DNA of 15,180 bases from a virus (lineage: Duplodnaviria; Heunggongvirae; Uroviricota; Caudoviricetes): positions 1-15,180 of the IMG/VR virus record IMGVR_UViG_2563366825_000027. One strand, 5' to 3'. The position numbers were made by a program. Position 1 is the first letter of the stretch. Each line of letters starts with the position of its first letter. This document shows, one piece after another, positions 1 through 3,000 of this stretch.

Positions 1-3000
1 ACCCGCAAACCACACTTCCCTTTAAAACGCGTAACATACATTGCCTGCGTTTAACTTTCTTTGAACTCTTGCAGAAAAATGAGAATTCGTGAGTACGATC
101 ACTCAAAATCGCCTGGCAAAAATAAAATCACCCTATAGATGCACAAAAAACGGGCAAAACTACCTGGTTCGCAAAACTGCGTCTAAAGTTAAACCGGGAC
201 CTCGCGAGCAAGGGTGAGACGATGGCGCTTTACACAATTGGTGAAGTGGCGTTGCTTTGTGATATTAATCCTGTCACGTTACGCGCGTGACGCAACATTT
301 TTAAAAATCGACGAAGATCGTCCAGGAGCGCCGTTTTTCAAGGGTTGGATAGATGATTCGTTTACCATGTCGACGAACTTCGACGAATTTCGCCGATAAA
401 AAGTGTCCCATACATGCCCCATTGATGCCCCATAAACAATATCAGGAATTGACACTGGTTATCCATACAGACAAAAATAACACCTGTACATAACCACAGT
501 TACAGGAGGGTGTTATGCGTGTTGAGATCTGTATCGCTAAAGAAAAAATCAGCAAAATGCCAAAAGGTTCTGTTTCTGCCCTGCAGCAAGAAATGCTTCG
601 ACGTGTCAGTAAACGTTATGACGATGTGGACGTGATTGTCAGAGCCGCCAACAATGACAGTCTCACCATTTTAAGAGCTGTAGATAAAGAATCCGCGCAC
701 GAATTTGTTCAGGAAACACTGCAGGAAGCCTGGGAAACCGCTGACGACTGGTTTATTCGGTAAATCTTCTTTACGGGGAGTTAACTTACTCCCCATTTTT
801 TATTGCATGATAATTGCAGCAACGGCACAGAGTGTCACCACACCACCCAGCCACACAAACAGCATGAAGCACATTGCTCCCGCTGTATAACGTTTTCTCC
901 CGTACATACGGCATTTGTCTTTATTCATCATCTGCCCCTGAATCACATGAAGACGCTGCAGGTCCGGTAACACTGAATCACTCCGCACACGCAAGATGTT
1001 TCACGCTCACACCATACAGCCCGTTTTTCGCCATTCCCGTATACAGAAAGGTATTCACCGTCTTCGTGTGAATGCCCATTTCACTGGCAAGGCGACAGGG
1101 TCTCGACTGACGGTAGACATAACCAAACATCACCACCATCTCTGACATCGTCAGCGGACGGGCAACGCTGTTATACGTCCACACACCATTGCGTATGGCA
1201 TCACTTATCTGTTCGCCATCACGGAGTGATTCCGCACCCAGTTGCAGAAAATGTCGTCCCTGAAACATACAGCGCATCAGCCTGCCCAGTAAAACATCAC
1301 AGATTATCAGCCAGGATTCATCAAAGTCCGGGATATAACGGCGGTTCTCCGGCAGGAAAAACTCCCTCGCCAGTATCACACTGTGTTCCTTCAGCAACTG
1401 TTGCAGTCCATATTCCAGGTAGCGGTTCCTTGTGGCCAGAATTACCTTCATCGCAGCACCTTCCTGTTTTTATGCCCCATGAAAAAAAACGGCAGGCAAA
1501 ACTCCTGTGCCTGCCGTCATGCTTCATGTCACTGTCAGCAATTAAAACTCGAAGTTCACACCAACATTCCAGGAGGCATCGCCATCACTGAATGCCACGC
1601 CTGCTTTCGCTGCGGTCTGCTCGTTGAAGCGGTAACCCACACCCACCGCCAGTGCCTGCTGGTCGCTGTAACCACCAACCGCTGCCGTGGCGTTGAATTT
1701 ACCCACACTGTACGGCTGGAACAGACCAGTCAGGGCCGCAGACTGTGCTGCTGCACGCTTCATTTCCTTGTGGTTTTCATTAATCTGGCGCTGCTGGCTG
1801 TCCAGACGTGCTGAATGTTGCTGCAGCGTACGGGTATTGGCTGCAATCGCCTTGCTGTTTTTCTCAATGGATTGCGTGTTACGGGTGACACGGCCATCAA
1901 TGGCACCAACCGCAGCATCAATACGGTCAGTACGACCAGACAGGGCCACCAGACCATCGTTAACAGAAATGGTGTTCTTTGCACCTTCTGCACGGGTCAG
2001 GGTGCCGTCAGAACTCACACCAACAGTGGTGCGATCTTTGATCGATTTATCCAGATCAACGATAGCATCGCTTACACGCGCATTTTTTGGCGCTGTAACA
2101 TCATGTGTATAGCTGCCATCCTCTTCCTGATAAATGGTTGTATCTGCCTGAATGGCTGCAACTACATTTTTTACAGACTCTCGCTCCACTGAGCCTGTTT
2201 CATCAAGGGTAATGTTACCGTTAGCATCGATAGCAAAAGTTGTGTCTTTATTCAACCTATCTATATTGGTAACGATGCGGTTGTATTCCTGCAGAACACC
2301 AGGGCCATCTTTAGCTGCTGCGACAGCGGCATCTGAGCTACCGCCGGAACGGACAGCAGTAACATAGGCTGGCGCTGTGGTTGAAGTTATCTGTTTCGAG
2401 ATTTCTTCTTTTTTCTTAACTATTTCATCAATCTGATTTGCTGATAGATTTTTAATATTCTCAGCTGTCAATCTATTATCATCTACAGGATAAGATATAG
2501 AATTTAAATATATATTTTTTAATTCTTTCTCCATCTGTTTATATTTTGGCTGTTTTTTTATTTGTTCATCAATTAATTTAATCCCAGCATTAAACTCATC
2601 AATGTTGAAGGTCATAAAAGAGCCAATTTCAGTATTAATTGCAGGTATCACGGTCTCATTATTTTTATTAACAACAGATGCAATAATACCATTAACAACA
2701 ACTTTATATTGTCCATTATTAATAGTATAGGTCTCAGCAGCCATAGCTCCCGAACTCACCAGCAACAGTCCGGCAACAGCAGAAGAAAGAATAGTCTTAG
2801 AGAATTTTTTGTTCATCTGATATATCCTGTAATTTCTTTGTATACAAAAAAAGCAACCCTCTCAGACGCACTTCAGATACACTAAAGAAAATCTGATGAC
2901 TGGCCGCTTCCTGTCAGCTTATTCCAGGATTATTCGCAAAAATGAATATAAACTTTTTAGGAATTATCGTACTGTACAGTCGGTGATATCCGTCACCCCC

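Follow-up and report, generated by a model that had tools for sequence, protein, structure and literature searches.

The 15,180-nucleotide stretch of viral DNA analyzed here, referred to as the window (IMG/VR virus record IMGVR_UViG_2563366825_000027, positions 1 to 15,180), was 100% identical to an Escherichia coli KTE14 contig (GCA_000407805.1) across positions 1–12816. Its minus strand carries an intact open reading frame (ORF) of 424 aa plus a stop codon at positions 1542–2816, exactly the boundaries given in an initial annotation, which described the gene as an Eib-like trimeric autotransporter. The features on this strand are arranged in the order L, K, I, J, a hok/sok module, a tail fiber gene, a DUF4376 gene, a stem-loop, the eib-like gene, a terminator, an orf156-type gene, and an orf60-type gene, followed by dinI on the opposite strand and the end of the prophage. 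The segments of the protein, the flanking features, and the blocks of DNA homology are listed in Table 1.

Table 1. Segments of the eib-like gene, flanking features, and blocks of DNA homology, in window coordinates.
Feature	Position	Strand	Basis or remark
Signal peptide, aa 1-26	2739..2816	-	Read from the sequence; 81-100% identity to the signal peptides of relatives
AT-rich N-terminal cassette, aa 27-146	2379..2738	-	G+C content (GC) 0.256-0.27; GC at third codon positions (GC3) 0.19
Remainder of predicted N-terminal globular domain, aa 147-195	2232..2378	-	Begins within the conserved ITST/TAPAY motif
Connector or stalk segment, aa 196-261, ending VDLDKSIKD	2034..2231	-	Short strands mixed with helices in the full-length model
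Saddle minidomain, aa 262-294	1935..2033	-	Alignment to EibD structure 2XQH
Left-handed coiled-coil stalk, aa 295-365	1722..1934	-	Near-identical to EibD structures 2XZR and 2XQH
YadA-type membrane anchor, aa 366-424, four beta-strands per protomer	1545..1721	-	PF03895, 2LME, Foldseek
Stop codon	1542-1544	-	
Upstream region (promoter or 5' untranslated region), ~180 nt, AGGA Shine-Dalgarno sequence at its end	2817..2994	-	Common to eibA and other eib-like loci
Intrinsic terminator of the eib gene: 11-bp stem GACGGCAGGCA/UGCCUGCCGUU, then U run	~1480..1518	-	RNA fold
G+C-rich 8-bp stem-loop right after the DUF4376 gene	3267..3286	both	Terminator-like site
DUF4376 tail-fiber-assembly gene	3296-3871	-	
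Collagen-repeat tail fiber gene	3891-5393	-	
J	5874-9341	-	
orf156-type companion gene, 157 aa	978..1451	-	PHROG 6585 (function unknown)
orf60-type small companion ORF	800..994	-	PHROG 9340 (function unknown); orf-60 annotated in P-Eib records
Homology block: tail-fiber-assembly gene	3900-3309		BLASTN 81-91% to relatives
Homology block: upstream block and signal peptide	2994-2739		BLASTN 69-76% to relatives
Homology gap: aa 27-146	2738-2379		No BLASTN match in any relative compared
DNA homology restart within ITST/TAPAY	from 2378		92% to SW070917
DNA homology restart immediately before DTTFAID	from 2254		PhiR5_2
DNA homology restart at first saddle codon (RTTVG)	from 2033		eibA and eibD

The C-terminal anchor had been assigned to the YadA/Eib family, and searches against the Eib proteins and YadA bore this out. 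Residues 366–424 matched the Pfam YadA_anchor model PF03895 (E 1.3e-16; 60.8 bits against a cut-off of 22.7), the C-terminus matched the solved YadA anchor 2LME (E 1.5e-18), and a Foldseek search with an AlphaFold2 model returned the YadA, AtaA, and Hia anchors as its sole matches. Upstream of the anchor, aa 243–356 aligned to the EibD crystal fragments 2XQH (E 3e-31) and 2XZR (E 6e-27). When EibA, C, D, and E were translated from the P-Eib prophage records for comparison, aa 261–424 proved to be 97–98% identical to EibA, 90–100% to EibC and EibD, and 69–85% to EibE. The full-length monomer model contained one unbroken 80-residue helix (aa 285–364) that aligned to the trimeric EibD stalk structures; the product is predicted to be a homotrimer with a coiled-coil stalk. 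At the other end of the protein, the classical signal peptide proposed earlier was also recognizable: as read by eye from the translation, MNKKFSK...AMA/AE has the basic n-region, hydrophobic h-region, and AxA layout of the Sec type.

The similarity to EibA extended over the region that carries immunoglobulin G (IgG) binding in the family. The membrane-proximal coiled coil was 98% identical to that of EibA, and the 70-residue segment containing the IgG motif (aa 261–330) was 97% identical; the saddle was complete, and a 19-residue segment that includes D300 was identical to EibA letter for letter. The stalk bears the IgG Fc-binding motif RTDRID-A, with the D300 codon at positions 1917–1919. 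D300-A301 aligned with D268-A269 of EibA and D387-Y388 of EibD, and D300 aligned with D391 of EibG. In EibG, the substitution D391A abolishes IgG Fc binding, Ala naturally follows the key Asp, and a variant from which almost the entire passenger has been removed still binds Fc (PMC13534694). These EibG data place Fc binding in exactly the part that the present protein shares with the proven Eibs. Since the Fc-binding aspartate is kept on a coiled coil that closely matches the one in EibA, we predict non-immune binding of IgG Fc by the protein, together with a contribution to serum resistance; this prediction draws on both the near-identity to EibA and the EibG mutational data.

A different function could be imagined for the same stalk, namely that of a mere scaffold in a Cla-like fiber that serves aggregation or adhesion only and binds no immunoglobulin. 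ClaA and ClaB confer chain-like adhesion and serum resistance without IgG Fc binding (PMC13534694), and among 80 full-length relatives, each representing a 90%-identity cluster, 27 lack the saddle and the IgG motif. We consider this alternative unlikely because the saddle and IgG segment are those of EibA, a proven IgG Fc binder, and include the aspartate essential in EibG, and because the Cla proteins, with a beta-roll head and no Eib N-terminal domain, are organized in the opposite way to the present protein. By description, ClaA and ClaB are EibG-related E. coli trimeric autotransporters that share the saddle and serum resistance but have neither the Fc-binding aspartate nor an Eib N-terminal domain, possess a lollipop head, and occur in other genomic contexts (PMC13534694). 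The present protein has D300 and an Eib-type N-terminal domain and is without a head.

Base composition changed abruptly within the gene. Maximum-likelihood segmentation with two change points (log-likelihood gain 35) gave a GC of 0.46 for aa 1–29, 0.256 for aa 30–145, and 0.515 for the remainder, the change points falling at gene nt 87 and 435 (window positions 2729 and 2381). GC3 was 0.19 over aa 27–140 compared with 0.545 over aa 261–424, and N, K, I, Y, and F made up 45% of the residues in the AT-rich segment against 20–23% elsewhere in the protein. In a sliding-window analysis, the 300-nt stretch with the lowest GC anywhere in the 15-kb window fell within the gene, starting at 2411 (GC 0.253; window mean 0.519, standard deviation 0.084). 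The AT-rich passenger proposed in the initial annotation was confirmed for the first ~120 residues (2379–2738) but not for the passenger as a whole; similarly, the internal composition step was as sharp as claimed, but the GC-typical part included the stalk as well as the anchor.

BLASTN comparison of the region with the eibA, eibD, PhiR5_2, and SW070917 loci revealed a nested pattern of matches (Table 1). The AT-rich cassette had no DNA match in these four loci or in the locus of strain G8, whereas both of its flanks matched, and the homology breakpoints (2738 and 2378) lay no more than 10 nt from the composition change points. Strain G8 showed 91–93% identity in the flanks (823–2033 and 2759–5478) with a different, frameshifted passenger between them. 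At the protein level, identity to the top 70 relatives did not exceed 60% in aa 27–140, reached 87–98% in aa 141–260, and rose to 100% in aa 261–424. Because an AT-rich block without a DNA match lies between matching flanks, and because composition and homology agree on where this block starts and ends, the earlier suggestion that part of the passenger was exchanged by recombination is well supported. The most recently exchanged cassette is aa 27–146, and older breakpoints are nested at 2254 and 2033.

The composition step might also have arisen in place, through selection for a surface domain rich in Asn, Lys, and Ile or through local mutation bias, with no foreign cassette involved. The residue composition of the segment would agree with this, as would the AT-rich 5' parts of other eib genes and the homology of the module's fold and motif layout with the rest of the family. 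However, synonymous third positions are equally skewed, the boundaries are abrupt and adjoin the points where DNA homology stops and resumes, G8 carries a different passenger between nearly identical flanks, and N-terminal types reassort with C-terminal types across the family. Divergence in place is therefore quite improbable, and recombinational exchange remains our explanation of the step. As the 5' parts of eibA (GC 0.34–0.41) and of the PhiR5_2 homologue (0.30–0.37) are AT-rich too, low GC is a trait of the entire pool of N-terminal modules, of which the present allele is the extreme. A word-index search of 5.8 billion proteins with aa 27–150 matched only two E. coli fragments, one a variant with 79% identity and the other a 75-aa partial sequence of the same allele with 100% identity. 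An exhaustive HMMER search of 1.84 billion representatives with the same query gave nine weak matches (E ≤1e-3), and each of those that could be placed came from the N-terminal end of another Eib-like protein of E. coli.

The AlphaFold2 model of aa 27–195 (predicted local distance difference test score, pLDDT, 93.7; predicted template modeling score 0.84) showed a beta-sheet packed with helices, and according to this model the AT-rich cassette accounts for the beta-sheet and initial helices of an N-terminal globular domain. Eib N-terminal domains contain a similar mixture of beta and helical elements (PMC12511318). The domain was 31% identical to the N-terminal domain of EibF over 172 aa (E 8e-14) and had no BLAST-detectable similarity to those of EibA, C, D, and E. 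A motif count found a single head-type motif of the beta-roll repeats, compared with 4–6 in EibC, D, and E; there was no Pfam match to a head or neck, no match to the head residues of 2XQH, and a score of only 72 bits to the NCBIfam YadA model, whose cut-off is 750. Without a YadA-like head, the architecture is that of EibF and EibA and not that of EibC, D, E, and G, and by sequence the N-terminal domain can be classed as an 'Eib region' domain of EibF type. EibA, which also lacks a head, still autoaggregates (PMC7568254), and aggregation through Eibs is reported to be homotypic, with the capacity to keep out cells of other types (PMC7568254, PMC12511318). By analogy with the proposal for head-less EibA, homotypic aggregation between cells is a predicted role of the distal N-terminal domain.

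EibF (E. coli ECOR-2, Q8VW24, 459 aa) was the best named full-length match, with 52% identity. The two proteins share the type of N-terminal domain, the absence of a beta-roll head, the saddle, the IgG motif, and the anchor, and aa 261–424 were 91–98% identical to the representative of the EibF cluster (P0060). They differ in that their N-terminal domains are only ~30% identical, EibF additionally contains a repeated coiled-coil segment and a second 11-residue motif, and the middle segment (aa 196–261) of the present protein is unrelated to EibF. This connector was 98% identical to relatives P0002–P0004 and ~20% identical to EibA, C, and D; the preceding aa 147–195 were 87% identical to P0002–P0004. 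EibA (P-EibA, ECOR-9, AAF63234, 392 aa) has the nearly identical C-terminal 163 residues described above, the same D-A pair at the Fc site, and no YadA-like head (PMC7568254), but its N-terminal 230 residues have no BLAST-detectable similarity to the present protein. EibC, D, E, and G share the saddle, left-handed coiled coil, and anchor, and P-EibC, D, and E carry their genes at the same prophage position; unlike the present protein, they possess a left-handed parallel beta-roll head, a neck, and a right-handed coiled coil, and EibD has Tyr after the key Asp where the present protein, EibA, and EibG have Ala. Yersinia YadA has a homologous membrane anchor and follows the same type Vc secretion principle, but the match is limited to the last ~100 residues, and the collagen-binding beta-roll head of YadA is absent here.

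The prophage ends near position 448, adjoining btsS, and the eib-like gene lies ~1.1 kb from this end. Its description as cargo downstream of the tail fibers agreed with the gene order, which P-EibA, C, D, and E share down to the stem-loops on either side of eib; P-EibA reads J, tail fiber, orf191, stem-loop, eib, stem-loop, orf156, orf60, and differs in the EaaA autotransporter that follows orf60 there and is absent here. The stem-loop at 3267–3286 marks the boundary between the late tail operon and the eib cassette, and a stem_loop is annotated upstream of eib at a comparable place in AF151091 and AF151675. At the other end, the terminator fold at 1480–1518 had a free energy of -29.7 kcal/mol (z -4.3), none of 200 shuffled sequences was as stable, and the P-Eib records carry a stem_loop annotation at the same place. 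The upstream block had 69–76% DNA identity to eibA, PhiR5_2, and SW070917 with many invariant alignment columns, and a 168-bp region upstream of eibG drove expression (PMC13534694). Of the features expected of a moron, the locus shows terminators on both sides and an atypical composition, together with a conserved 180-nt upstream block in which the scan described below found no consensus promoter.

The position directly after the tail fiber genes raised the question of a virion component, that is, a tail fiber or adhesin with a YadA-like end instead of a bacterial surface protein. Two PHROG 'tail/adhesin' families matched weakly, and tail proteins of phiEco32-like and jumbo phages matched aa 301–424 at ~28–32% identity. 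The Sec signal peptide, the terminator and 480-nt spacer between the tail genes and eib, the gene's own terminator, and the near-identity of the C-terminus to EibA–EibF, which are outer-membrane proteins of the lysogen, led us to reject this reading as extremely improbable.

In our assessment, the gene very probably encodes an Eib-family trimeric autotransporter (type Vc). It is located at the right end of a lambdoid prophage in E. coli KTE14, probably as a self-contained cassette for lysogenic conversion (a 'moron'). From what is known of the family, the protein would be exported by Sec, three C-terminal four-strand segments would form a 12-strand outer-membrane barrel, and the passenger would thread through this barrel and fold into a trimeric fiber composed, from the membrane outward, of the barrel, the left-handed coiled coil, the saddle, the connector, and the N-terminal globular domain at the tip. 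The constant membrane-proximal coiled coil would bind IgG Fc and add to serum resistance, and the variable tip would mediate homotypic aggregation. The allele itself very probably originated by cassette exchange, in which an AT-rich module (aa 27–146) was joined at two conserved islands, the signal peptide and the ITS-TAPAY motif, with older junctions before DTTFAID and at the saddle start.

Several observations weigh against this interpretation. The anchor had a pLDDT below 50 in the AlphaFold monomer model, as expected for an obligate trimer, and neither the word-index search of 5.8 billion proteins nor the HMMER search of 1.84 billion representatives found a donor species for the cassette. 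Leo et al. 2011 reportedly place the stretch of EibD that binds immunoglobulin A (IgA) at about aa 329–344. This stretch is not conserved in the present protein, whose aa 243–261 were only ~20% identical, so IgA binding is not predictable. A sigma-70 consensus scan of the coding strand upstream of the gene found no site. EibA-type proteins yield clumps and not chains (PMC12511318), which makes the aggregation phenotype uncertain. Known eib genes are poorly expressed unless activated, for instance by static culture (PMC5450701).

A further reading is that the prophage is decaying and carries the gene, though intact, as silent baggage with no current function. In favor of this, inserts break up the tail module, the promoter scan was negative, a frameshift disrupts the allele that G8 carries at this site, and H-NS typically silences AT-rich DNA. 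On the other hand, at least 24 contigs from many assemblies preserve the 424-aa ORF unchanged, and the prophages that carry it occupy two integration sites (next to btsS and next to prfC). Eib loci also have a conserved upstream region in common, and other Eibs are expressed under static growth (PMC5450701). On this evidence, silent baggage seems an unlikely description of the gene.

Two companion genes lie downstream. An orf156-type gene stood beside every eib gene examined (P-EibA, C, D, E, PhiR5_2, and SW070917). Its product has no signal peptide, and its C-terminal third resembles a LuxR/GerE helix-turn-helix. Single-sequence searches of the Protein Data Bank (PDB) and Pfam with this product were empty, and a profile of the family gave just four PDB matches, all of them LuxR/GerE regulators with weak E values (0.08–0.54); hhalign against GerE gave a probability of 75%. 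The orf156 product is possibly a LuxR/GerE-type helix-turn-helix protein and, if so, a candidate local regulator of eib. Sandt 2002, as cited in PMC8065619, is said to describe IbrAB as an activator of eib genes. The orf60-type ORF has a likely product of 43 aa that begins MNKDKCRMYGRKRY and has a hydrophobic C-terminal segment FMLFVWLGGVVTLCAVAAIIM, by which it is probably a small membrane protein. Between the DUF4376 gene and the conserved upstream block, ~310 nt (2995–3308) had no counterpart in the eibA, eibD, PhiR5_2, and SW070917 loci and were shared with G8; a 61-aa ORF lies on the plus strand at 2896–3081.

Other features of the window concern the tail region. The collagen-repeat part of the tail fiber gene (4100–5000) reached 64–71% GC, the reverse of the AT-rich composition of the eib cassette, which lies 2 kb away. 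Between J and the tail fiber gene, where lambda and P-EibA carry lom, there is a hok/sok module (~5536–5822, minus strand), recognized from an Rfam sok match at 5665–5822 (59.6 bits against a gathering score of 59) and a 46-aa HOK_GEF ORF on the identical contig. A P22 immI-like insert (11054–13066) interrupts the tail genes between L and K and contains an antirepressor (Bro-N / P22_AR_C, 304 aa), two Arc-type repressor ORFs, a ClpP-related ORF on the opposite strand, and a sar antisense RNA (11970–12036, 69 bits). Directly upstream of L, a full OmpC-family porin gene (14017–15180, minus strand, 387 aa; NCBIfam 'porin OmpC', 497 bits) was found; phage homology stops at 13821, and 88 complete E. 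coli genomes have the same porin–L junction, so that the porin may be prophage-borne or a rearrangement scar. In lytic phages H74–H87, comprising phiEco32-like and Salmonella jumbo phages, the proteins matching aa 301–424 were annotated as tail proteins or as 'agglutinating adhesins'; it is curious that virion proteins should carry a domain resembling a membrane anchor.

The initial annotation had expected a known type of virulence cargo and not a new system, and database coverage was in keeping with this. The exact protein was already in NCBI as 'hypothetical protein WCS_02482' or 'YadA C-terminal domain-containing protein' of E. coli KTE14, and PHROG 9547 (function unknown) covered the full-length architecture end to end (E 1e-179). 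None of 5,426 complete E. coli genomes held more than ~65% of the gene region, and the allele was located in draft assemblies. In E. coli G8 (L001 6143–7385), the gene at the same prophage position is split into a frameshifted 'YadA C-terminal' pseudogene and a 167-aa ORF, followed by S6-peptidase autotransporter fragments comparable to EaaA in P-EibA.

Comparison of the 80 full-length relatives revealed opposite patterns at the two ends of the protein. The N-terminal modules fell into 37 clusters at 70% identity (median pairwise identity 25%), whereas the last 95 residues formed only 4 clusters at 95% identity (median 92%). Seven N-terminal clusters paired with more than one C-terminal state, and the N-terminal cluster of the present allele was a singleton. 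The 27 relatives without the saddle and IgG Fc-binding segment (e.g., P0035, P0047, and P0106) had lost them by a clean deletion, and P0106, found in 714 contigs, is the most widespread variant; many E. coli 'Eib-like' genes are accordingly predicted to encode non-binders.

It is conceivable, if doubtful, that the N-terminal cassettes of these head-less fibers act as prophage-borne self-recognition 'barcodes', and that the AT-rich DNA of the present allele stays silent until a dedicated activator, either IbrAB or the LuxR-like orf156 product, induces it. The occurrence of 37 N-terminal types on 4 C-terminal types and the reported homotypic preference and exclusion (PMC7568254, PMC12511318) are compatible with this idea. 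If it were true, hypervariable, freely reassorting tips, mounted on a constant stalk for IgG binding and serum resistance, would let cells with the same allele aggregate and keep others out, and the present allele would represent a rare new specificity.

Eib proteins help E. coli to resist complement and to stick together, and they travel on prophages. The gene described here is an uncharacterized allele of this known family, head-less, with an EibF-type tip and an N-terminal cassette that is nearly unique and unusually rich in A+T; it does not amount to a new system and extends the catalogue, not the concept. Typing by polymerase chain reaction or BLAST based on eibA–G would miss this allele despite its full IgG Fc-binding stalk. 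The pattern of interest is a conserved anchor and Fc stalk onto which dozens of AT-rich cassettes reassort at conserved motifs, with about one-third of the proteins lacking the Fc module; immune escape, kin discrimination, and new ligands are candidate drivers of this diversification of the tip.

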